A DNA stretch of 64,000 nt from a virus. Location: the IMG/VR virus record IMGVR_UViG_3300028388_003330, positions 1 through 64,000 of that record; one strand, written 5' to 3'. A model generated the notes under the pieces. It made no database searches and had not been told where the DNA came from. It worked only from the letters and a program-made list of their open reading frames with translations. Made by a program: the position numbers and the translations under genes. Positions 1,786 through 64,000 of the stretch are shown piece after piece. Numbering within the stretch: position 1 is the stretch's first letter; each line of letters begins with the position of its first letter.

Positions 1786-1844
1786 GGATTCTTCCCTCCT
1801 GCTCCTGTTCCTGCTGTGGATCAACTATAGTAAGAATCACGCGG

Positions 1845-1872: not shown

Positions 1873-4800
1873 TTAACTAATCACTTCCGCCACAAGCTCA
1901 AAGGTCTTGTTCAAAATCTCTTGATGGGCGCTGTGATGATAGATCGTCGCCGGGTTGATTCCGACAATGATTGTGGCGTCCAAGGTCTTGTCATAGATGA
2001 CCTTGTTGGCGATATCCGTGTAGCCACCCTTCAGATCAGGAACCAATTTCCTAGCAATCGTAGCACCTAGTGCCACAATTACTGGCGGTTTCAGGTACTC
2101 AATTTCCCGTTCCAAGAACGGGTAACAACCATTAATCTGTTCGTTCGTCATCACCTTGCCGTCCTTCTTTGCCTTCAGCAGCGTGGTGAAGTACATGTTC
2201 CTCATAGACAGGTCCGCATGCTTCATCGCTTCCCTGACGTACTTGCCGCTTTTTGCTGCCATCAACTCCCCGGCTTCTTCCTCAATCCATGTCGGGCAGT
2301 CTGTAATCACCATCACTTTCGGTGACTTGCCCATCCTTGGTTTTAAATGAGGTCTGCCAGCAAGATTGCAGTTCTCGCAACCGTCAAACTCTTTCGTAAG
2401 TCTGATGATTTTGGCGGAAACGAACTTGTCGATTTCCATTTTCCGGTCTGTCTTGACCATCTGAACGATCAGCCCCGGAATAAACTCAATCTGGTCGCGC
2501 AAACGATCAGGGTGCAAGACAGGAAGCCCGCCCTCAATCTCGACAAAGGAACCAATCCTTTGCAAACGCTCACGCACCGTCTTGTTGATGCGTTTGCCTT
2601 CCATAAAATTCTCAAAGTCGGCATAGCTTTTGAAGCGACCGCCCGCCTGTGTCCGCGCTTCAATGATCCGGTGACAGGAGCGTTCTGAAATCCCCTTCAC
2701 ACGATTGAAGGGAATAATTAGCTTATACTTATCAGCCTTTGTATCGAACACCACTTCAAACACGTCGCTGGACCGATTGATGTCAGGCGGAACCACCATG
2801 ATGTCCTTGTTTGCAGCGTCCTGAACCAAGCCCTGCAGCTTGTCTTCGTCCAGAATGGACAGGGAAGCCGCGTAGAACTGCGCTGGGTAATACTGCTTAA
2901 CCCACATCGCCCAATAACTGATAATCGAATACTCAACCGAGTGTGACTTGTTGAAGGCGTATCCGGCGAACTTCTGGATCTTATCGAACAGCATTTGGGC
3001 GCGGCGCTCCAACATATCAGAATGTAATTTGCAGCCCTCAACCCACTTAGATTCCTGCTTCGCCATCATTTCCGGGTCTTTCTTACCCATTGCTTTACGC
3101 AGGTGATCGGCGTCCGACATGGAGAAGCCCGCCAAGTCCTGCGCGATCTTCATGACCTGTTCCTGATAGACGATAACGCCGTAGGTTTCCTTAAGCGCCT
3201 CAACCATGTTGGGATGCTCGTAATGGATCGGCATCACTCCTTGTTTGGTCGCTACGAAATCCTCCATCAAGCCAGAGTCCATAGGGCCAGGTCGATACAA
3301 CGCTGTTGCTGCCGCGATATCCTCAAACGTCAAGCCGCGTACACTGATGTCCCGCAACAGCTTCCGCATACCCGGAGATTCAAACTGGAACACGCCAATG
3401 GTGTCACCCATTGCGAACGCGTTCAGCACCTTCTCATCGTCCAGCGGTAGCTTTTGATAATCGACCAGAACACCGTGATCGCGCTTGATCATATGCTTGG
3501 CGATGTTGAGAATATCCAAGGTCGAAAGACCCAGGATATCCATTTTCACCAAACCCTGTTCCTCGACAACGCGCTTGTCCCAGTTGACCGTGACATCATC
3601 GCCCCGCGTTTCCACAACGGCACGATTAACAATCGGTTCTCCAGCAACAACGATACCCGCTGCGTGTCTACCCAGACTGCGCATCTTGCCCTGTAACTTC
3701 TTCGCGTGTTCCCACACAACAGGGTGGTTTGTTTTGAAGGCATCAATTTCCGGAACAACCTCTGCCGCTTGTTCCATTTCATATGATTTGCCGTGTAACG
3801 CAGGAACCAGCTTTGACGCGGAATAGGCGTCTCTCTCCAGATTGAACACGCGGGACACATCACGGATTGACCCTGCGGCTCCAAGACTGGTGAAGTTGCT
3901 TATACCCGCAACGCAATCTCTGCCATAACGATCCACAAGGTATTGAACAACCTCTTGCCGTCTGGATGACATGAAGTCGAGGTCAGCATCAGGAAGATCC
4001 AGACGATCCGGGTTGATGAACCGTTCAAAAATCAATCCAAACCGCAGAGGATCGACATCGGTAATACCCAACAGGAATGCGATCAACGAGCCGCCTACTG
4101 ATCCTCGACCTGGGCCTACGGTGATATCGTTGCGCTTGCTCCACTGCACCAAGTCCTGCACCAACAGGAAGTAGCGTTCAAAACCCATCTGACGCAGCAC
4201 TTTCAGTTCGGTTTGCAGGCGTTCCTTATACTTTGGCAAGTCTGCGGGGTCCGGCTTGAATCCTAGCTGTTGTTGACCAAGTCGCTTAGTCCAACCCTTC
4301 TTAACTTCAGAAACCAGCGTCTCGCGCTCATCATCAGCCATCTTTGGAAGCGACACATCCGACGGCTTCCAGACATAATTAATCTGGTTAACGAAGAATT
4401 CCTGGTTTTGAATAGCCTCAACCCAGACAGCGCCCGACCAACTGTCGAGCTGTGCCATACGCTTGTTCAACCTCTCAGATGCCGCTTCCGCTTTGTTCAC
4501 TAATTCGCCATGTTCGCAAAACGTGAACGACCGTATTTGTTGAACAGGACGCCACGCATCCGTGATCTTGGCGTTCATTGCAATGGCTGACATCACATCC
4601 AGCGTGTCGGCATCCTCTTCTGTAAGGTACATCGCCGGATATGTCAGCAGCACCGGAAGCGATAATTCTCGGGAACAACTGATGGCACGGATGTTCAGTG
4701 TATCGAACAGCACACTGTCGATGGGGCACAATTCCACAAACGTCTGAGAGCTTCCACAAGCGCTTGCCATTCTCTGGATATATCCGCAGTAGTCTTCTTT

Positions 4801-5259
4801 ATGGCAGACGCTTAGAAAGTCTCCTGTAGACGCTAGCAAATGCCCCCGAGATAGCTCGCTTAGCAGTTCTTCGAATCCGATCCGAGAGTGATGGTAGAAG
4901 TGATCTGCTTGATTGGCGATGGACAGCAATCGATACAGCGACCGGATTCCTTCTTCGTTCTTGGCGTAAACCTTCACGAAGAACTCTTCATTGGGCTTCG
5001 TGCGCTGCTTCTTTGGGGTCTTGTCGAGCGGGTCGTCAACGATTCGAATCTTGCAGCCGATAATCGGCTTGATATCGTTCTTCAGACACGCCTTAGTAAA
5101 AGGGATCATTGACGAAATGCTCATGAGGTCCACAAGCGCCACAGACTTGTAGCCTCGCTCTTTCGCCAATGCTGGAATTTCTGTAGGGCTTAACAGCGAA
5201 TGCCCGATACTGAAGTCGGACATTACCGAAAGCGCATGCTCAGCTTTCAACTCCCCCAT
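1873..5259 (-). CDS. dnaE: DNA polymerase III alpha subunit with C-terminal uracil-DNA-glycosylase family-4-like domain
   Basis: GPGRGSVGGSL, FERFINPDR..LPDADLDF, HAAG, KMDILGL, GVFQFES, YQEQVM, FNKSHS motifs; C-terminal CENC...KVMVITDCP...EREIEYLKPPVIVALG. Confidence 0.95.
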   Translation of the reverse strand: MGELKAEHALSVMSDFSIGHSLLSPTEIPALAKERGYKSVALVDLMSISSMIPFTKACLKNDIKPIIGCKIRIVDDPLDKTPKKQRTKPNEEFFVKVYAKNEEGIRSLYRLLSIANQADHFYHHSRIGFEELLSELSRGHLLASTGDFLSVCHKEDYCGYIQRMASACGSSQTFVELCPIDSVLFDTLNIRAISCSRELSLPVLLTYPAMYLTEEDADTLDVMSAIAMNAKITDAWRPVQQIRSFTFCEHGELVNKAEAASERLNKRMAQLDSWSGAVWVEAIQNQEFFVNQINYVWKPSDVSLPKMADDERETLVSEVKKGWTKRLGQQQLGFKPDPADLPKYKERLQTELKVLRQMGFERYFLLVQDLVQWSKRNDITVGPGRGSVGGSLIAFLLGITDVDPLRFGLIFERFINPDRLDLPDADLDFMSSRRQEVVQYLVDRYGRDCVAGISNFTSLGAAGSIRDVSRVFNLERDAYSASKLVPALHGKSYEMEQAAEVVPEIDAFKTNHPVVWEHAKKLQGKMRSLGRHAAGIVVAGEPIVNRAVVETRGDDVTVNWDKRVVEEQGLVKMDILGLSTLDILNIAKHMIKRDHGVLVDYQKLPLDDEKVLNAFAMGDTIGVFQFESPGMRKLLRDISVRGLTFEDIAAATALYRPGPMDSGLMEDFVATKQGVMPIHYEHPNMVEALKETYGVIVYQEQVMKIAQDLAGFSMSDADHLRKAMGKKDPEMMAKQESKWVEGCKLHSDMLERRAQMLFDKIQKFAGYAFNKSHSVEYSIISYWAMWVKQYYPAQFYAASLSILDEDKLQGLVQDAANKDIMVVPPDINRSSDVFEVVFDTKADKYKLIIPFNRVKGISERSCHRIIEARTQAGGRFKSYADFENFMEGKRINKTVRERLQRIGSFVEIEGGLPVLHPDRLRDQIEFIPGLIVQMVKTDRKMEIDKFVSAKIIRLTKEFDGCENCNLAGRPHLKPRMGKSPKVMVITDCPTWIEEEAGELMAAKSGKYVREAMKHADLSMRNMYFTTLLKAKKDGKVMTNEQINGCYPFLEREIEYLKPPVIVALGATIARKLVPDLKGGYTDIANKVIYDKTLDATIIVGINPATIYHHSAHQEILNKTFELVAEVIS

Positions 5260-7055: not shown

Positions 7056-7070
7056 ATTCTTCCCTCCTGC

Positions 7071-9224: not shown

Positions 9225-9242
9225 TTTTATCCTCCCTCCTGC

Positions 9243-9784: not shown

Positions 9785-9835
9785 CCCCACCAGAAAAGCA
9801 GCACCACTATTAAGCCGAGACACAGGAAAACTGAC

Positions 9836-10310: not shown

Positions 10311-10328
10311 ACCGCAGGAGGTCATGTA

Positions 10329-13515: not shown

Positions 13516-13572
13516 ATCCCCACTCCTGCGTTTCTCTCTGTAGAGTTAGATTAGCGTCGCGCTTTTGGCGTA

Positions 13573-14655: not shown

Positions 14656-16043
14656 TCCCTCTTGAGAACTTTCGTAACAAATTTCATTTTGGCGAGGTCT
14701 TGCTTGACGTAGAGCATGAACCCGCTGGCCTGATTTCGCGAAGCGGCGAAGTACAACCTTGCCTCGTCCTTCATCGCTTCGTCTTCAGATTTGTTAATCG
14801 AAATAACCAAGTCGGCAATACGGATTTTATTGAAATCCTCGGCAACGTGTTCGGCCTTGGCGACGGACGCTTTGAACCCATCGCGGTTGGTCTGAGTTGC
14901 CGAAAGAATGGCGACGTTCTCCTGCTGTGCAATGGCCCTTACATCAACCCACACGCTTTTCGAATTCTCAATGGCGTCGTTCGTTCGATAGCTGGGGGCC
15001 ATAATGTCCAGATAATCGATTACGATAAGCTCAAACAACAGGCTCTTTGCCTTATAGTGTTCGATCAAGCGCCGCAAATCAGTCGGCGTCATGGTTCCAG
15101 ACGGGTACTCATGGATCTTGAACGCGCCAACCTTCTCCGTCTCCCTGATATGTTCCACAGCGGTTTTAACCGCATGAGGCGACACCTTCAGATCGTTCAT
15201 CGTAATGTCTGCGAGATTCGCATCCGCTCTGGTGGCCGCGATTTCCTTCGAAACCTCCAAGGTGACATAGAGAACGTTGTAACCAGCTAACGACGCGGAA
15301 AGTGCAGAATTTATTAAAGCGGTGGTTTTTCCAGTTTTGGCACCGCCCATATAAATACTGAGTTCTGACTTTCCCCACCCTCCGTGATAGAGGTTGTCAT
15401 CGATCTGAGGAATGCCGGTCGTTACCGAATCAATCTTGGAACCGGAGAGTGATTCCAGCCTTGTTGCCGTCCTGCTTTCGATCTCATCGTAGAAATCATA
15501 AGTTGGCGATTGCTGCGCACCAACCTGCATGGCTTCCTTAACCACCTTTTCGATGTTTTCGAAATCCTTTCTGCCAAGGTACTCGACAGATTTCAGAATT
15601 GCCTTTTCAAGAGCCTGATGCTGTGCAAAGGCCGCAACCTCATCGATAACGTAATCCCGATCTGAGATGTCCTCGACGCTAAGGCGCTTCCAAGCGGCGA
15701 GAATTTCGGGTTTTAAATCCTCTCTGATAACCTTCCTTTTGATACCCTCCTTCAGCAGTTTAAGTAAAATGGAATTCGCCGGAATACGGCGATACTTGTT
15801 GAAGTATTTCAACGTCAGCGAAACCAAGACGGCTTCACCTGAGTGTTCAAAATACTCAGGTTGAATCAAACCCTCTGAACGCTCATTGAAAACCGGGTCG
15901 CGAAGCACCAGCGCAGCGATCTTGGTTTGAAAGCTGGAGTCGAAATCATACCGCCGAGTTTTCTCGGTCTTGAGTTCCTCCTGTGCGCCCCCGGTGAAAG
16001 ACCTGCCAATATCTTCCGCAAGGGATTCTTCTGTCACGCCCAC
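14652..16043 (-). CDS. Replicative DnaB/gp41-like helicase
   Basis: GGAKTGKT Walker A, YVTLE, IVIDYLD, SATQTNR, AEDFNK. Confidence 0.92.
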   Translation of the reverse strand: MGVTEESLAEDIGRSFTGGAQEELKTEKTRRYDFDSSFQTKIAALVLRDPVFNERSEGLIQPEYFEHSGEAVLVSLTLKYFNKYRRIPANSILLKLLKEGIKRKVIREDLKPEILAAWKRLSVEDISDRDYVIDEVAAFAQHQALEKAILKSVEYLGRKDFENIEKVVKEAMQVGAQQSPTYDFYDEIESRTATRLESLSGSKIDSVTTGIPQIDDNLYHGGWGKSELSIYMGGAKTGKTTALINSALSASLAGYNVLYVTLEVSKEIAATRADANLADITMNDLKVSPHAVKTAVEHIRETEKVGAFKIHEYPSGTMTPTDLRRLIEHYKAKSLLFELIVIDYLDIMAPSYRTNDAIENSKSVWVDVRAIAQQENVAILSATQTNRDGFKASVAKAEHVAEDFNKIRIADLVISINKSEDEAMKDEARLYFAASRNQASGFMLYVKQDLAKMKFVTKVLKRE

Positions 16044-16297
16044 TATTCAACCTCCAACGATTTGATAGCGTGTTTGAACACCAATACCTTTCGGTCGTCA
16101 TCATCCTTCTTGTATTTGAGGGTGACCGTGTATTTGTCGAACTCAATCAAGATGACTTGGTAGTAAACAAAACCTTCGATTGTCTGCACCACAAGGCTTT
16201 TGCCCAAGCACTCACGCAAGAAATTTTCATGATTCCTTACACCAGAAGCGGCCTTCGGTCGGTTCTTCAACCTAATGGTTTCTCGCTTTTTTTCCAC
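16043..16297 (-). CDS. hfq: Hfq-like Sm-fold RNA-binding protein
   Basis: HENFL...IEFDKYTVTL...LVFKHAIKS aligns with Hfq QDPFL...ESFDQFVILL...MVYKHAIST; AGGAGG RBS. Confidence 0.75.
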   Translation of the reverse strand: MEKKRETIRLKNRPKAASGVRNHENFLRECLGKSLVVQTIEGFVYYQVILIEFDKYTVTLKYKKDDDDRKVLVFKHAIKSLEVE

Positions 16298-17046: not shown

Positions 17047-17085
17047 TTCCGTCTTCCTCTCCTGTGTCTATACCAGTAAGAGTAT

Positions 17086-44100: not shown

Positions 44101-47100
44101 AAACGTTATCGCCATTGATGTTGACATACGTCGTTCCATCGGACGCAATGCCCTCAAAACCCGCGTAGAAAGTACCGGTTCCAGCCGTCCTACGAATAAT
44201 AACGGTCCATTTATAGATACGCTCTGGATCAAACGGAATTAGGCTGTTATGAGCCAACCAGTGAAGATCATCGCCCGAGTTATCACCGATTCTTAGAAAC
44301 TTACCGCCCATATAGCTATCAGCGGCGGTTTGAATCGATAGCTCCCCAGTTCCTTGTCTGGTGATCCAGTAATTCAAGGCATTGGCGTCTTCCCAAGTTT
44401 CTTGGAAAATGAGATTGCCGGAGTTTGACGCCGTCGCTTCAAGCGCTTGGATTGCCTGAGTGTGCGAACTTAAAGTGCCTGCTTGATCAATATAAACTGT
44501 CGTTTCTAGGTTATCGATAGCCTGAGCGCTAGCACTAAGACCCGTTTCCGAGTCGTCAATTGACGCCTGAACAGCATCTAGACGATTGGCGTTAGCAACG
44601 ACGCCTCTTTCACTATCTTCTACCGTCGTTTCAAGATCGCTAATAGCAATAGAATGCGCTGCTACAGCGTCGCCAAGACTGGAGTAATCACCGATTTTCG
44701 TCCAGTAAGCGGTATCGGTAGGAAGAGGCGAAGGTGGAAAAACAGCCGTCGTATCCTGAATACACCGATAAAGCGAACCGTTGTAAGCAACGATATCGTC
44801 TACAAAATATTCAGTATTCGCATCAAAATCAGGCGTACCTTCAAGCGCCGCCACTTGAGTCTGGAGAGTATCTACCGCGCCCTCTAGGTCTGTCGTTCTA
44901 TCGTCAAGACCGGTAGTAGGCGTATCAATTAAATTAATTCTGCTATTGAGCGAAGCGGTTAATTCGCTCTCTGAAATCTGACCCTGAAGATCGGCTAATG
45001 TAATACCGAAGTCTTCAATGACGACACTAACCTCAGAGCTAAACGTTAGATTGTCTTTGCCCCAAATGTCATACGCCGCAACACGGACATACCAAGTTTC
45101 ACCGTTATTGGCGGTTATCAGACAACCATTGCCAGTACCTTCATATACCTTGTTTGTATTTATATTTGGAGTAAAGCCAATGGTTTGAGATGCGCAAACG
45201 ATATATCCGCCAACATCAACATCGCCTACACGATCCCAGCCAGCAGCATACTGCGTCTCAGCGTTATTAACGAAAAGATTGCTTGGCGCAGAACTAATCT
45301 GCGGGTTCGTAACGATAATACTTGCGGAGCTACCAGTGGTTCCGCTATAGAGTCTAGCTTTAACCCTAACCGTGATTGAACGATTAATCTGTCCGTCGTT
45401 CTGAGCATCCGCCCATGTATAGGTGTAAGACGGATCTCCAGTGTATGAAATTCGAACAACGGCTGAATTGATTTCAACCTGAACCTCGTAGTCGTAAGCC
45501 TCTTCCAGCTCGTCCCAGCGAACCGTAAAGCGATCCGAAATGAACGGACTTACCAGACCAAGATTCTGAACCTGACCGGGCGGGGCAACTTGAGTGCCGT
45601 TAACAGCGTTAAAATCACTATAAACGCCATCTGTAGTTACTGCTTTAACCCAATAAAAATAACTGATGCCCTGATTAACTGCGGCATCTGTGAAAGTCGC
45701 CTCTTTTGTACGTCCTATTTCTACCGCCGTACCGTTATCATCACTGGCACTGCGATAAACAACGATTTCGTCGTATATGCCTGTTGGCGGCGTCCAACTA
45801 AGGCTAACGATTGTTCCAATTGCAGTCGCAGTAAGGTTTGTAGGCGTAGTTACATCTGGGCGCGCAGTAGAACTAAACGCGATGGTTGGCGCACCAGCAA
45901 AAGTGGCCCGACGACCAACAATGTCAAAAGCAACGACCTTAAAGAAGACAGAAACGCCAACAGGGATGCGATGACGATACTCCAATGTCCGCATATCAAC
46001 CTGACCAACCTTCTCGTAAGGTGCGCCATCAACGGACATATGAATATCTGCACCGCCATAAACACCTGAAGCGGGATACGACCAATACAGATTTGCAACA
46101 GGAAGATAGCTGTTACCTATCTTCTCATATTCTTGGTAGACGCCTAGATCAACAACCTGCCCAATCTGTTGAGGTGCCTCATATATAGGCAACTCAATAT
46201 TATTGTCAACATTATATATTGCCGAATTATACTCAATGGCCCGGATTGTACGAACTTCATGACCAGAACCATTAATTGCAATAACGCGAAATGGACGCTT
46301 GACTAGGGTAACCGGCCCTAGCATAAATTTTGCGTATTTTGGAGGGGCTGAACCTAACGACGAGGCTACGGTTACCGATGATGTTAAACCCGGCGCGTTT
46401 GTAATATCTCGCTCAATTATTACATCAGTATCGTAAATAGTATAATCATGACCAGCAACGATACCAATGGTGTTTTCTATTTCAACACCATAATTTCCAG
46501 ATCCGTCATCATATACAACGCGACGAATTCGATGATCAACGCCGTTAATAACAGCGCGTGTTACGTTGGTATTGCCGTCATAACTGTTCAACCATACAAT
46601 GCCGCCTCCTACTGCTACGCCAGACACCGTACCGGTTGCGCGAGAAATCTTGTCGTAATTAATAAGCAGTCGGTAAGTAATACCGTCTAGTAACTCAACC
46701 TCTTGATCAAGGTTAACAACACTAACCGTGGAATTCGCTTCCAGCCGACCGCTGTACTCCCAATTCGGGAGATTATGCTGTACAAGTATCTGACTACCAA
46801 CCGTACAAGCAATAGACTCTACCGGCGCATCAAACGTAATGCTTTTGGTAATGTACTTGTTTAAGTTAAGTTGAAATACCGCCTCATTAACGGCTTGTTG
46901 TTTATCGGTACAACCAAATAACGTTATCCTTGCCGTTTTTACGTCATCAGTTGGCAAAAGAGATGGGTCGCGAACCTTTAATGTGGTTCTTTCATAATCG
47001 TTTTCTGAATCAAAGTAGGTAACTTCGATTTCATTTGCCCTGTCAGTCATGGGCAACCAAGTCATCTTAAATGACTTCTCGACAATGTTACCTACGTTGA

Positions 47101-49856: not shown

Positions 49857-50222
49857 TCAAACCTCACGAAGCTTGATGCTCGTAACATCAAAATAATGCG
49901 TACCACCGACGCCCTTATACTTAAAATCCATTTCCTCTTCAAAGCGAACTGTGACCTCTTCAAGCGTTGTCGGAATCGTCCATGTAAAGCTCTTAGAGCC
50001 GCCCAACTGCGTGTTCCAGAACGTTTCCAGTAGCGCTCTATCCGCCTCTGAGATCTGCGTAAAACCCGTTTTAAACACTCTACGAGGGCGTCGCGTGTAT
50101 CGTGGGCGAGTTAGTTGATAGCCGCCATCGGTACTGGTTCGAATTGCGGGGTCTTCTTGACTAACCTCGAAATATTTCGAATCTTCCTTGGATGTCATTC
50201 CAGCAGGAGGGAAATCACTCAT
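49857..50222 (-). CDS. Distal tail protein (gpM-like)
   Basis: IRT..DGGY..TRPRYTR...GGSKSFTW; follows the tape measure gene. Confidence 0.8.
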   Translation of the reverse strand: MSDFPPAGMTSKEDSKYFEVSQEDPAIRTSTDGGYQLTRPRYTRRPRRVFKTGFTQISEADRALLETFWNTQLGGSKSFTWTIPTTLEEVTVRFEEEMDFKYKGVGGTHYFDVTSIKLREV

Positions 50223-53200: not shown

Positions 53201-53497
53201 CTCAAGAAGCTTGCCCATACGCTCAAGCGTGGCGTTGGCATCAATAATCTGCTGCTGCCAATCCCAAACAACAGCACGCATGTTAACCAGCGCATGACGA
53301 GCAAGACCGGTGATTGTAACGAAATCACGCATCTTCCCTGAAAAACTAGTGACATGCCGCTCCATGCGACGCACAGAGTTGGCAGTCCTGTCGAGATTGA
53401 CGCCAAGGGTTCGAACCGTTTTACCAGCAACTCGGGTGCGCTCAACAAAACCACTGTCGTTAAGCTCAAGCTCTACTTTGATTCTGCTGGTAGCCAT
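50219..53497 (-). CDS. Tape measure protein
   Basis: APFSL...AIQQMAGKGVISMEELRQQLGE tape-measure domain; C-terminal FADGGI...GEG..EAYVPL. Confidence 0.93.
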   Translation of the reverse strand: MATSRIKVELELNDSGFVERTRVAGKTVRTLGVNLDRTANSVRRMERHVTSFSGKMRDFVTITGLARHALVNMRAVVWDWQQQIIDANATLERMGKLLEGMSEAATASERVKEAGENLQWLITKAQEAPFSLNELGNTFVKFRSVGIDPTNGSMQALLDSVARFGGNDQILHRATIAIQQMAGKGVISMEELRQQLGEAVPRAIQLLARSMNMTFRELVNAISKGTVESMSALEKMFGEFRRNYEGAAFELMSTWIGMTQQMRTQWMVFLNDVGQAGFFDAAKQEFQSLINAFADGQFKSVAENIGQALAAMVRGLRSFIDFLVNNWDAIKVFGKALATAFAINTLLNFSRALRASVVPAIAASSMAMKKFAVDVSVAMFAIRTAPTALSATTAAIGAFTFAIRGLVSALGLVAPILIAFTTLFYALDSAAKTAEETISEMDLNFVSSQDVVTAKQALNEIEGEYNRVLTRIEKAERDGTAKSQDDMRKLADLRSKYLNARIKFAQIEEAFSRQVTTREKRNARQAMSEQLVEAKNAYQTTAAIQDEFLRRKEITNEQHKTNMINIARTMYAKMGEAYLSEMKETEAALETARKQGAEDSIKKLEARLSVEREMYLEHREQSARELKAMELANVFITDSAGEEKKANKLETYLNSLANKAIDAKAELAGMNGELAKFQFMLESGQFGKAGVQLLGDPKAWDKAKEKVLEAENSYKAAIEARRQATQITQLVDSTQKSNEAGLQKMLQMRRQLESGYNNETAVEARIRGLIEWLDALVAKSPAAEAAIAELRSELQEGLTIEQDRKALQDAFNFKERARLIRQGLLTEREMRRAEYEYEKELLEQRLLDFEGDSEAQVAMQRELYGLLDALRDQYMRDTETAIQALNRDWQDITDEMEQAWVDFANNATDAIMDFVETGKFEFADLITSMLRELIRLQIQKNIVGPLTSALSSAVSGMFGASDFGGSFIGSSSLGGGPTPVFADGGIMTPAGKLPLRSYASGGIADSPQLALFGEGRMNEAYVPLPDGKNIPVTLTGQQVPNVQVNVINQSGQPVKANQGQTKFDGRQMILDVVLEAANRPGGFRDGLRGAVR

Positions 53498-61680: not shown

Positions 61681-62976
61681 TTAGATAGACAGACCCCTTA
61701 TATTGGTCAATCGCACCGGATATTCGTACTCAATGCAATAGCCAAGCGCATCTGTGGCGTGTTCCACACTCATCATTTTGTCGATCTCTGGCGACCCTTC
61801 CTTATAGATGGTCTGCTCGAAAGACTGGATGGTTTCCTTGCATTTTTCATCGACCCGCAAACGGACTCGACCGTCGGCTGACATGAGCATGCGATTCACG
61901 GCATTTACTCTGTCTTTGACCTTTGGATGGCTGTAATGATATTTCATTCTCTTGAAACCGCGCTCCCTGAAAATATCCAGATCCGATTCACCCCTGGCGT
62001 GCTGACGATGCCCACCTGCGGGGTCAGGGTAGATGGTCGTACTCCGCAAATAACGCCAAAAGCGTCGCTCTAGCTCATTACAGGTTTCTTCTGTGTTGGA
62101 ACCGTACAGGATCACCTCGTCAACAACCCAAAGTTCGCCATTCCGCTGTGGCTGCATGATGATCGAAGTCATGGGGTCGATGTTGAAGTCCTGACCAACC
62201 CAGATAGGGAGATTCTCGTTAAATTGCAGCTTTCCAACGTGCAAACCGCGATCAAACGGGTAATAAACCCTACCCGACATGGTTTCAAAGCTAGCCTCAA
62301 ACTCCTGCTTGAAGGACTTGGCGTCCATGTCGCGGCGAGCCTGTTCGATCTCGGAATCAGGGATAAAAGGCGAGGAAATGCTCGGAAACTGCCAAGATTC
62401 CCATTGATTTGTCGAAATATATTCGGGCTGTTGACCCAAAACGTACAGATCGTACAGGTGATTAAATGACTTCGGAGTCCCGATAAAAAGTGCATGACCT
62501 CCAGTGCTGGCGAGAGTCGGACGAACCGCTTCTTGCCACACTTCCCACTTCATGTCCTGAAACTCGTCCAAAACCACATAATCCAGACCAACGCCGCGCA
62601 GCGTATCCGGCTTATCAGCGCCCTTACACTCAATCATGGAGCCATTAATGAGCCGAACCGTCATGGTCGTCTCATTCAGCTTTTTGATCCATTGGGAGGG
62701 GATGGCTTCGACAAGTTCATCCCAGATAATCTGTTTTGCCATTCGATAGGTTGGCGCGATGTACCAGACCTTCTGCTTGGCTTTGCGCGTACGATGGATC
62801 ATGGTGGTTTTGGCAAGCTGAGTTTTACCCCAGCGTCGACCGGCAACAACCACTTTAAAGCGCGCCTTAGATCGATAAACGAGTTCTTGACCTGGGTGCA
62901 GAAGAAGATTGTTCTTGGGTTTTTCAACCCGCGCCAATTCCTCCAATACAGGGTCTAAACTAGCCGTTGAGTGCAT
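61681..62976 (-). CDS. terL: Terminase large subunit
   Basis: AGRRWGKT Walker A, LRG..LDYVVLDE, IGTP, GQDFN, YPDPAG, H..DA.GY. Confidence 0.95.
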   Translation of the reverse strand: MHSTASLDPVLEELARVEKPKNNLLLHPGQELVYRSKARFKVVVAGRRWGKTQLAKTTMIHRTRKAKQKVWYIAPTYRMAKQIIWDELVEAIPSQWIKKLNETTMTVRLINGSMIECKGADKPDTLRGVGLDYVVLDEFQDMKWEVWQEAVRPTLASTGGHALFIGTPKSFNHLYDLYVLGQQPEYISTNQWESWQFPSISSPFIPDSEIEQARRDMDAKSFKQEFEASFETMSGRVYYPFDRGLHVGKLQFNENLPIWVGQDFNIDPMTSIIMQPQRNGELWVVDEVILYGSNTEETCNELERRFWRYLRSTTIYPDPAGGHRQHARGESDLDIFRERGFKRMKYHYSHPKVKDRVNAVNRMLMSADGRVRLRVDEKCKETIQSFEQTIYKEGSPEIDKMMSVEHATDALGYCIEYEYPVRLTNIRGLSI

Positions 62977-63631
62977 TCTTGATATCTTCTTCGGATTCCC
63001 GACTGATTTCTTCTAACTCATCAACCGATGTTTCCAACTGCTCAAGCGGCACGACACCCGAACGCAATTCTGCTTCTCTTTGAACCTCTTTGACTTCGTC
63101 TTCGGTCATGCCGCGAATGATCAGTTCCGGCAAATCCCTTTCCTGTTCGTCCTCTTTGTCCATGTCAGTAGCCTTGGCTCTCTGATCAAAGGCTTTCTGC
63201 TGGATGCTCAAGGCTCGCTCAATGGAGCGAAGATCAGGCTCTACTGACGCTAGGCTAACGCCGTTTTTCATAGCATCGGCAACGATCTTCATTCCGGCCT
63301 TAGCCAACACCGTTGCGTTGTTGTAGTGGAACTGTTTGGTGTCGATTTGCCTTTTTGCAATTATTTTTGCATTCCAAACATCGGCGCGAACCAATTCCTC
63401 GTGAACCTTTTTCCGATGCTCTTCTGCCTTCTCACCGTAGCGAATCCCCCATTCCTTCATTTTGCGCGAAACGGTTTCACGCCGAACGCTGTATTTTTCA
63501 GCGATATCCATAAGGCGCATCTCACCCATTGCCCAAATAGCGGCAATTTCTTGCCACTGTTTTTTGGTCAGGCGATTACCTTTGTTGGTGTCTTTGTTTG
63601 TTCCGTCACTCATTCTCTTGGCTCGGGACAA
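62960..63631 (-). CDS. terS: Terminase small subunit (start possibly ATG 63613)
   Basis: N-terminal HTH (LMDIAEKYSVRRETVSRK); directly upstream of terL. Confidence 0.75.
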   Translation of the reverse strand: MSRAKRMSDGTNKDTNKGNRLTKKQWQEIAAIWAMGEMRLMDIAEKYSVRRETVSRKMKEWGIRYGEKAEEHRKKVHEELVRADVWNAKIIAKRQIDTKQFHYNNATVLAKAGMKIVADAMKNGVSLASVEPDLRSIERALSIQQKAFDQRAKATDMDKEDEQERDLPELIIRGMTEDEVKEVQREAELRSGVVPLEQLETSVDELEEISRESEEDIKNALNG

Positions 63632-63681
63632 AAAAATGGGCGTATGCTGGGATACGCCCTAACACAGGAGGGACTGCAATT
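63630..63681 (-). ncRNA. Candidate ~52-nt sRNA / terminated late leader with anti-SD seed
   Basis: Consensus promoter, then AAUUGCAGUCCCUCCUGUGUUA, 8-bp hairpin GGGCGUAU/AUACGCCC and a U7 tail. Confidence 0.65.
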
Positions 63682-63687
63682 AAGGGC

Positions 63688-63716
63688 ATTATAGGTTTGA
63701 GTATAAATATGGTCAA
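63688..63716 (-). promoter_or_regulatory. Strong sigma70 promoter TTGACC-17-TATAAT
   Basis: -35 at 63716-63711, -10 at 63693-63688. Confidence 0.8.
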
Positions 63717-63730
63717 TCATTTATGACTAA
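63713..63730. promoter_or_regulatory. Operator (TCAATCA-TTTA-TGACTAA) overlapping that -35 box
   Basis: Consensus match. Confidence 0.55.
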
Positions 63731-63748: not shown

Positions 63749-63841
63749 GTGGGCACTTTTTCGTTTTCCTCTAGTATTAATACTCTTGGTATTAAAATAC
63801 TTAAATAATATTAATACTACGGAAAACGCAAAAGTGCCCAC
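63749..63841. repeat. Long imperfect inverted repeat with AT-rich core
   Basis: GTGGGCACTTTT.CGTTTTCC..TAGTATTAATA ... TATTAATACTA.GGAAAACG.AAAAGTGCCCAC. Confidence 0.85.
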
Positions 63842-63844
63842 ACC

Positions 63845-64000
63845 TCACAGATCGAAGTCCTCGTAGGTAAGAGGAAGACCGCTCGGGGGGAAACAGGTTT
63901 CATCCTTCGGATTAACCATTCCCATGATTCGGTATCCTGCTGCTGTCGGAGCGAGAATAACTCTTCGGCGACCTCTGCGAATCTCTTTTCCGTTTTTCAC
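63845..64000 (-). CDS. 3' end of a basic, winged-helix-like hypothetical protein (partial)
   Basis: ...KNGKEIRRGRRRVILAPTAAGYRIM...YEDFDL*. Confidence 0.6.
   Translation of the reverse strand: MKNGKEIRRGRRRVILAPTAAGYRIMGMVNPKDETCFPPSGLPLTYEDFDL

Follow-up and report, generated by a model that had tools for sequence, protein, structure and literature searches.

The window analyzed here comprises the first 64 kb of the 80,202-bp single-contig genome of a temperate phage (IMG/VR record IMGVR_UViG_3300028388_003330, designated G000), and the element in question is a promoter–leader–terminator unit located immediately upstream of terS. The genome encodes a lambda-type integrase, an XRE-type regulator, DnaE-UDG, DnaB, DnaG, PhoH, DHFR, and CobS/CobT-like proteins, and includes a 45-kb minus-strand virion block, which is headed by terS followed by terL. 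Because terS is only 33–36% identical to its homologues in SSU5, Cyrano, and Klebsiella phage-plasmids, we assign the phage, as judged from sequence identity, to the SSU5-type group as a distant member. Its nearest terL relatives (57–70% identical) come from marine and other Proteobacteria, and many of them are uncultured viral contigs. No match to this DNA was found among phage records, a search for sequencing runs (RNA or DNA) listed none for this stretch, and the terS query revealed no close relatives in IMG/VR, the protein collection, or the metagenomes; the cobT query yielded one distant locus.

On the minus strand, an operator-like palindrome, a near-consensus promoter, a short leader, and an intrinsic terminator precede terS in this order (Table 1). 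The initial annotation had described a minus-strand promoter that fires into a unit of ~52 nucleotides (nt) ending in an 8-bp hairpin and U7 just before terS, and the sequence confirms this anatomy. It had also placed the genome-wide operator of the phage over this promoter. This claim could be confirmed only in part: the dispersed palindromic operator overlaps the −35 element, and the match extends to 11 of the 14 consensus positions. The ATG of terS lies at 63613, 16 nt past the U-run, and therefore there is no room for a second promoter between the terminator and the gene. Within the structural block (18–64 kb), this terminator is the only strict intrinsic one; the other strict terminators of the genome are located after the integrase gene, inside a gene near 70.0 kb, and after the small early genes at 75–78 kb.

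Table 1. Features of the unit upstream of terS and ribosome-binding sites (RBSs) predicted to pair with its leader RNA.
Feature	Position	Strand	Remarks
Operator-like palindrome TTAGTCA-TAAA-TGATTGA	63711-63728	-	11/14 match to TAAGTMA-N4-TKACTTA; right half forms the −35 element
Sigma-70-type promoter TTGACC-17-TATAAT	63688-63716	-	11/12 consensus positions; same place in relatives, spacer 16–18 bp
Predicted terminated leader RNA (~52 nt)	63630-63681	-	Start assumed 7 nt after the −10 element; free of open reading frames (ORFs)
C/U-rich anti-RBS tract GUCCCUCCUGUGUU	63661-63674	-	Predicted open; top genomic 14-mer for RBS complementarity
Intrinsic terminator	63630-63659	-	8-bp stem with 5 G-C pairs and 6-nt loop at 63659-63638, then A and U7
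terS (small terminase / DNA-binding protein)	62960-63613	-	phrog_867, E = 5.6e-38; first gene behind the terminator
RBS of the 160-residue "uvsY-like" gene (CAGGAGGGA)	1793-1801	-	Predicted target, duplex −19.7 kcal/mol
RBS of the cobS-like AAA+ gene (CAGGAGGGA)	7061-7069	-	Predicted target, −19.7 kcal/mol
RBS of the cobT-like VWA gene (CAGGAGGGA)	9233-9241	-	Predicted target, −19.7 kcal/mol
RBS of the 140-residue helix-turn-helix (XRE-type) regulator (ACACAGGA)	9819-9827	+	Predicted target, −18.5 kcal/mol
RBS of the 69-residue HTH_17 (xis-like) gene ahead of the lambda-type integrase	10313-10321	+	Predicted target, −22.6 kcal/mol
RBS of the WGR-domain gene	13523-13532	-	Predicted target, −20.5 kcal/mol
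RBS of the 246-residue phrog_2500 gene heading the Hfq-like/DnaB/DnaG block (ACACAGGAG)	17059-17068	-	Predicted target, −21.7 kcal/mol

The predicted fold of the leader RNA (−15.8 kcal/mol, z = −4.2) consists of a weak 4-bp hairpin, which presents UCCCUC in a hexaloop, and the terminator hairpin. The C/U-rich tract is located in and around the loop of the weak hairpin and is thus largely open in this prediction. At the sequence level, the RNA displays the architecture of Hfq-dependent small RNAs, namely a U7 tail, an 8-bp stem, and a predicted open seed, and the locus displays a pR'-tR'-type layout, in which a promoter lies directly before the first late gene and an intrinsic terminator separates the two. 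A search with Rfam (Rfam 15), the C4 antisense RNA included, gave no hit at gathering score in the window, and at E values up to 10, the leader had only chance-level matches (BSnc140 and mmgR). The 9-mer UCCCUCCUG, which is the core of the tract, recurs once in the late mRNA (50204-50212, minus strand), between a gene of 1092 codons and the next gene; the chance expectation is 0.6, and a single recurrence is about as expected.

The unit is real and positionally conserved before terS in many relatives. IMG/VR, genomes, and metagenomes together yielded at least 22 loci with the module, in which terL is 57–70% and terS 21–38% identical. In 21 of these loci, (i) the promoter is present, with the right half of the operator as the −35 element (TTGACA or TTTACA), a 16–18-bp spacer, and a −10 element; (ii) the predicted RNA is 47–78 nt in length; and (iii) a CUCC tract lies directly 5′ of a GC hairpin and U-run. 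The operator lies over the −35 element of the terS promoter in ~20 relatives, and ~12–35 nt separate the U-run from the start codon. The C/U tracts of the relatives read CACCUCCAA, UCUCCUCC, UCUCCCUCC, CUCUUCUCC, and similar. Across 17 genomes, CTCC occurs no more than 18 nt upstream of 20 of the 22 terS-leader terminators, as compared with 12 of 147 other predicted terminators (Fisher 1e-15, uncorrected for phylogeny; the set holds ~14 distinct lineages). Because CTCC is kept before the terS terminators though the sequence around the leader cannot be aligned between relatives, the tract is, on this comparative evidence, a selected RNA feature. The module is absent from the enterobacterial SSU5 group and several other lineages.

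A further structure was observed at 63749-63841, between the phrog_900 gene and the terS promoter. It is a 21-bp inverted repeat with one mismatch; the 51-bp core flanked by its arms is AT-rich and contains the repeat AGTATT(A/T)TAATA, or a variant of it, three times. At the same place, the relatives L028, L047, L051, L054, and L172 likewise have large palindromes around an AT-rich core. Candidate roles for this palindrome are those of a packaging site, an origin, and the terminator of the upstream operon, and Rfam returned only spurious matches to miRNA models for it.

According to the initial annotation, the unpaired segment of the RNA is complementary to the RBSs of seven early or control genes. 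All seven sites are present and their letters are as claimed, and the leaders of the uvsY-like and cobS-like genes indeed have a 17-mer in common; the product of the former gene matches only PHROGs of unknown function. Further matching sites lie beyond the window, at 70719, in an array at 71285-73532, and at 72257, 75461, 76801, 77704, and 78628. For the statistics, we used 97 genes of G000, called by a simple coding-plus-Shine–Dalgarno (SD) score, and took the 25 nt before each start as the RBS window; 44 genes were classed as late and 53 as non-late. Contiguous complementarity to the tract reaches at least 8 nt in 11 of the 97 windows, at least 9 nt in 7, and 10 nt in 3, whereas for the canonical 16S tail, no window attains 8 nt. 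In the null model, the CCUCC (or CUCCU) core was fixed and all other tract positions were randomized. The mean count at 8 nt or more was then 1.0–1.2 genes versus the 11 observed (P 1.5e-4 to 2e-4), and at 9 nt or more, the same flank randomization gave P = 7e-5 to 2e-4. Among all genomic 14-mers of both strands (~160,000), only 3 reach a count of 11, and the tract ranks first. The direct antisense of any single RBS matches at most 8 windows; the tract outscores it because it merges the 2 commonest RBS types, AACACAGGAG and CAGGAGGGA. The matched RBSs are not copied cassettes, since their similarity is limited to a block of 8–10 nt and the flanks differ. The proposal that the pairing extends well beyond the generic SD core is borne out by these results.

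The predicted duplexes are also unevenly distributed over the genome. A duplex of −18 kcal/mol or lower is formed with 19 of the 53 non-late genes and with none of the 44 late genes (Fisher 2.5e-6), in line with the claim that late genes are spared. Duplexes of this level are formed with 20% of the phage's own RBS windows, as compared with 3–8% in 12 other phage genomes. Beyond the window, at 74000-79500 of the genome (L001:11000-16500), the minus strand carries a row of small ORFan genes, most with CACAGGAG- or AGGAG-type RBSs and none with a match to a PHROG family. An ACTCACT-like or TTCACTG motif stands before five of these genes, and four have an intrinsic terminator of their own behind them. 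PHROG scans of ten early ORFs at 69.9–79.4 kb gave no function.

To compare relatives, 15 of their records were fetched, most of them whole. The 215-kb record was split in two, which gave 16 relative genomes; genes were called in all of them, and every leader was crossed with every RBS set. The split record (IMG/VR 3300046694_000296; G003, 215,656 bp) consists of two related but different ~107-kb genomes, one directly after the other; it holds two copies each of terL, cobS, and the leader, and the two leader sequences differ. The initial annotation had asked for co-variation of seed and SD extension; among the relatives' terS leaders, only one agrees with this expectation, and two units away from terS also match the RBSs of their own phage. 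An own-genome-specific match was found for 1 of the 14 relatives' terS leaders examined, that of G013, a 103-kb phage-plasmid of Chitinibacter tainanensis DSM 15459. Its tract, GUUCGGUUCCUGUUUGUG, is quite different from that of G000 and mirrors its own RBSs CACAAACAGGA (twice), AACAGGAACC, and AGGAACCG(AAC) (P 0.002–0.016 with the core fixed; genome rank 2e-4). The orthologous cobS RBS is among these matches, all of which are outside the late block of G013.

The two other units belong to G006 (IMG/VR 3300040801_002731) and do not precede terS. Both of these tract-plus-terminator units (53435-53457 and 45015-45039, minus strand) carry CCUCCGUGUG, which matches the frequent RBS 7-mers of the same genome, CACGGAG, CACACGG, and ACGGAGG (P 0.001–0.02). 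The unit at 53435-53457 is a leader, and its tract and the SD of the 291-residue gene directly behind it form a perfect 10-nt complement; that at 45015-45039 is a 3′-untranslated-region-like unit after an 88-residue gene. Anti-RBS tracts beside terminators thus recur in the clade, and at least one instance looks cis-acting by its sequence. In the closest relatives available for this comparison, terL is only 69–70% identical. Over-represented RBS blocks were also noted in three other relatives (GGAGCTAGACA in 7 genes of G009, AAGGTAAACA in 6–11 of G008, and AAGGAGAGCA in 7–9 of G001), and these blocks are not matched by the terS leaders of the same genomes.

From the anatomy and complementarity described above, we infer the following course of transcription, termination, pairing in the cell, and repression. 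The unit would be the promoter-proximal leader of the late operon for packaging and morphogenesis, the transcript of which would start at the sigma-70-type promoter with its −35 element under the dispersed operator. The strong terminator would cause most initiations to release the ~52-nt RNA, and the late mRNA would require read-through, either by leakage or by an antitermination step. The released RNA would expose the tract for pairing with ~20 early, replication, and lysogeny genes at their SD regions, the RBSs being of the AACACAGGAG and CAGGAGGGA types. As late transcription rises, translation initiation on these mRNAs would be blocked, and the SD-poor late genes would be spared. Since the geometry puts the terminator between the promoter and terS, the unit probably gates the late operon, provided that the activity of the promoter and terminator is what their near-consensus sequences lead one to expect. 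Action in trans is favored because it accounts best for why an open C/U tract is conserved, why this tract ranks first in the genome, and why echoes occur in G013 and G006. We give the whole reading, in which a terminator gates the late-operon leader and the RNA released from it masks early RBSs, about an even chance; our confidence is lowered because it is drawn from sequence, because most relatives gave a negative result, and because the unit was selected from a very large scan.

Several observations weigh against this reading. First, the tracts of 13 of the 14 terS leaders match their own RBSs no better than random flanks do, and therefore the extended match is lineage-specific and not a family rule. 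Second, the early-versus-late contrast in G000 is partly just a matter of the lower SD strength of the late genes (with the 16S tail, the duplexes average −5.1 kcal/mol for late genes versus −7.0 kcal/mol for other genes), and a CCUCC tract pairs with any strong SD; the flank-randomization test is independent of the former effect. We had considered that late genes are SD-poor across the clade, and dropped this idea, as it is true only of G000, G001, and G011 among the 17 genomes compared. Third, the P of ~1e-4 carries a look-elsewhere discount, for the unit was picked among very many windows. Fourth, a single RNA would need to titrate ~20 mRNAs. Fifth, the leader unit of G006 suggests that such tracts can act in cis. 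Sixth, the analysis turned up neither a conserved chaperone nor an antiterminator, and no Q-like family was seen among ~45 proteins scanned. The initial annotation spoke of a late-promoter-derived RNA that shuts off early translation; the geometry of a lambdoid pR'-type terminated late leader fits this description, and with no antiterminator found, "late promoter" and "shut-off" are kept here as conditional terms.

The initial annotation suggested that an 84-residue Hfq-like ORF (16043-16297) of the phage possibly assists the RNA, and this link proved weak. The ORF scores 22.7 bits on Pfam Hfq (cut-off 27) and E = 0.36 against Staphylococcus aureus Hfq in the PDB, and it contains an FDKY...FKHAI pattern that resembles the Sm motifs of Hfq (FKHAI ~ YKHAI). 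No relative was found among 1.8 billion representatives or in the 16 relative genomes, module carriers included, and the single-sequence AlphaFold2 model (predicted local distance difference test score, 45) is too poor for a fold search. A link between the module and phage Hfq was therefore dropped, since the ORF is unique to G000 among the genomes searched.

The genes upstream of the unit encode the phrog_900 protein, an ATPase-GNAT protein, and two ParB_N proteins. The phrog_900 protein (113 residues; window 63845-64000 and on to 64186; L001:845-1186) is encoded directly upstream of the putative late promoter, and its gene is conserved in 12 of the 16 relative genomes. It resembles winged-helix proteins of the PadR/MarR type (template-modeling score of 0.6–0.7 in the structure atlas). 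As judged from this structural resemblance, the protein is more likely an operator-binding regulator than a Q-like antiterminator, and it is a candidate binder of the dispersed TAAGTCA-N4-TGACTTA palindrome. In a separate part of the window (1873-5142), an ORF for the DNA polymerase III alpha subunit (DnaE) carries a C-terminal domain of the uracil-DNA-glycosylase superfamily.

The main alternative, a serious rival that we nonetheless consider less likely, keeps the gate and dispenses with a function of the small RNA. In this alternative, the terminator would keep the late operon shut against leaky firing and against read-through from the upstream ParB/winged-helix operon, the tract would be the landing or switch site for an antitermination or processing factor, and the short RNA would be a by-product whose match to early RBSs is incidental. 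The geometry sends every terS transcript through the terminator, the tract is conserved also in relatives whose RBSs receive no special match, and one G006 unit displays anti-SD/SD pairing in cis. In addition, in three lineages of relatives (the L012/L004/L007 group, L018, and L042), the 7–10 nt after the −10 element repeat the 3′ arm of the terminator and could therefore form a duplex with the 5′ arm (permutation P = 0.015; −10 to −15.6 kcal/mol), so that RNA started upstream might read through and RNA from the leader promoter might not. The element in this window has no such special alternative pairing (rank 7 of 18), and an incidental match leaves the top 14-mer rank and the flank P of ~1.5e-4 unexplained. 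That no Q-, N-, or put-like component was found counts against a purely cis-acting gate as well, and the upstream gene looks like that of a winged-helix DNA binder. Three cis-acting pairings were considered and rejected: (i) an antiterminator formed by GCCCUUAA and UUAGGGC, which lies upstream of the likely start site and is unremarkable in this window; (ii) sequestration of the terS SD by the tract, because own pairs (mean −5.9 kcal/mol) do not differ from cross pairs (−6.0 kcal/mol; P = 0.60, or 0.87 in the non-redundant set); and (iii) pairing of the tract with terS codons 2–34, the P of 0.03 being treated as not significant after three tests.

It is unlikely that the leader serves as a generic anti-SD RNA directed mainly at host mRNAs, which would mimic the 16S anti-SD and mask strong SDs, with the early phage genes as a side effect. 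Such a role would be consistent with the tract of one subclade, AUCACCUCC, of which 9 nt are identical to the 16S 3′ end, and with the clade-wide conservation of only CUCC or CCUCC. However, the flanks of the tract in this phage, 5′ GUC and 3′ UGUGUU, diverge from the 16S tail and agree with the corresponding flanks of its own RBSs, and SD-poor late genes occur in only the three genomes named above. It is very improbable that the unit yields no functional RNA at all, being a decayed plus-strand RBS or a micro-ORF, or else the terminator of the upstream operon beside an unrelated promoter. In favor of this view, the plus strand resembles a typical phage RBS (AACACAGGAGGGA), with ATT and a frame of 15 codons 7 nt further on, and the antisense 19-codon frame of L005 begins with ATG. 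Against it, (i) no properly spaced ATG, GTG, or TTG exists in this window or in L004 and L011; (ii) the reading frame of the window differs from that of L005, and thus no peptide is conserved; (iii) in at least 21 loci, the terminator follows the conserved promoter and does not precede it; and (iv) the conservation of the tract argues for function. The plus-strand RBS or micro-ORF was dropped on grounds (i) and (ii).

Returning to the masking of early RBSs by a released leader RNA, we compared the unit with known systems. By analogy, the closest precedents are StxS and the lambda 6S RNA, the mode of action resembles those of P1 C4 and the UCCC-loop small RNAs, and the outcome resembles that of T4 RegB; by sequence or defining partners, the unit belongs to none of them. 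StxS, which is functional as a small RNA, arises by termination a short distance past a phage late promoter, and this pR' by-product binds Hfq and regulates mRNAs in trans by base pairing (PMC7547250). The unit resembles the lambda 6S/StxS arrangement in having a promoter directly before the late operon, an intrinsic terminator at once, and a short RNA, which is predicted here. It differs in that (i) no Q-type antiterminator gene was found upstream, the neighbor being winged-helix-like; (ii) the operator lies over the −35 element, and the promoter is thus probably regulated and not constitutive; (iii) the leader has no sequence relation to StxS; and (iv) StxS targets rpoS and stx1, whereas the predicted targets here are ~20 RBSs of the phage's own early genes.

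C4 of P1/P7 (immI; Rfam RF01695) and sar of P22 are phage small RNAs that mask the RBSs of phage regulatory genes and control the lytic program. P1 also has many operators dispersed over its genome. C4 is processed from an operon transcript and has one target on the same transcript, and sar is a true cis-antisense RNA; by contrast, the leader here would be released by termination and is predicted to act in trans on multiple targets. RsaE/RoxS and other Rsa RNAs of Staphylococcus likewise expose a C/U-rich, SD-complementary motif in or beside a hairpin loop and have several targets, but these RNAs are Gram-positive and chromosomal, contain several C-rich loops, are not derived from phage leaders, and have no sequence relation to the unit. 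The T4 endoribonuclease RegB selectively inactivates the SDs (GGAG) of early genes, so that early translation stops and late translation continues. The likeness lies in the proposed outcome: RegB is a protein nuclease that cuts the mRNA, whereas the agent here would be an RNA that covers the site.

In the literature searched, we found no description of late-gene control in SSU5-type phages or of such an RNA. The operator–promoter–CUCC tract–terminator–terS module offers a concrete regulatory element for SSU5-type phage-plasmids, a group whose enterobacterial members carry resistance genes. Tentatively, and with more doubt than we attach to the reading for this phage, the units of G000, G013, and G006 might represent an undescribed family of anti-RBS riboregulators that derive from leaders and occur throughout this clade of SSU5-type phages and phage-plasmids, in which the RNA complements a lineage-private SD extension of early genes and co-evolves with these RBSs, and in which rising late transcription shuts off early, replication, and lysogeny translation, so that an RNA would do what a nuclease, RegB, does in T4. 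One RNA and several reporters would provide a compact system for the co-evolution of riboregulators and SD flanks. If only the cis reading is true, the module still defines an antitermination problem at a conserved terminator. If RBS masking is true, the timing of the early-to-late switch in a temperate phage would depend in part on control of translation, with one small RNA, a by-product of late-operon attenuation that is matched to a private RBS code, acting on ~20 genes. This would go further than StxS, whose targets are those of the host, and than C4 with its single target.

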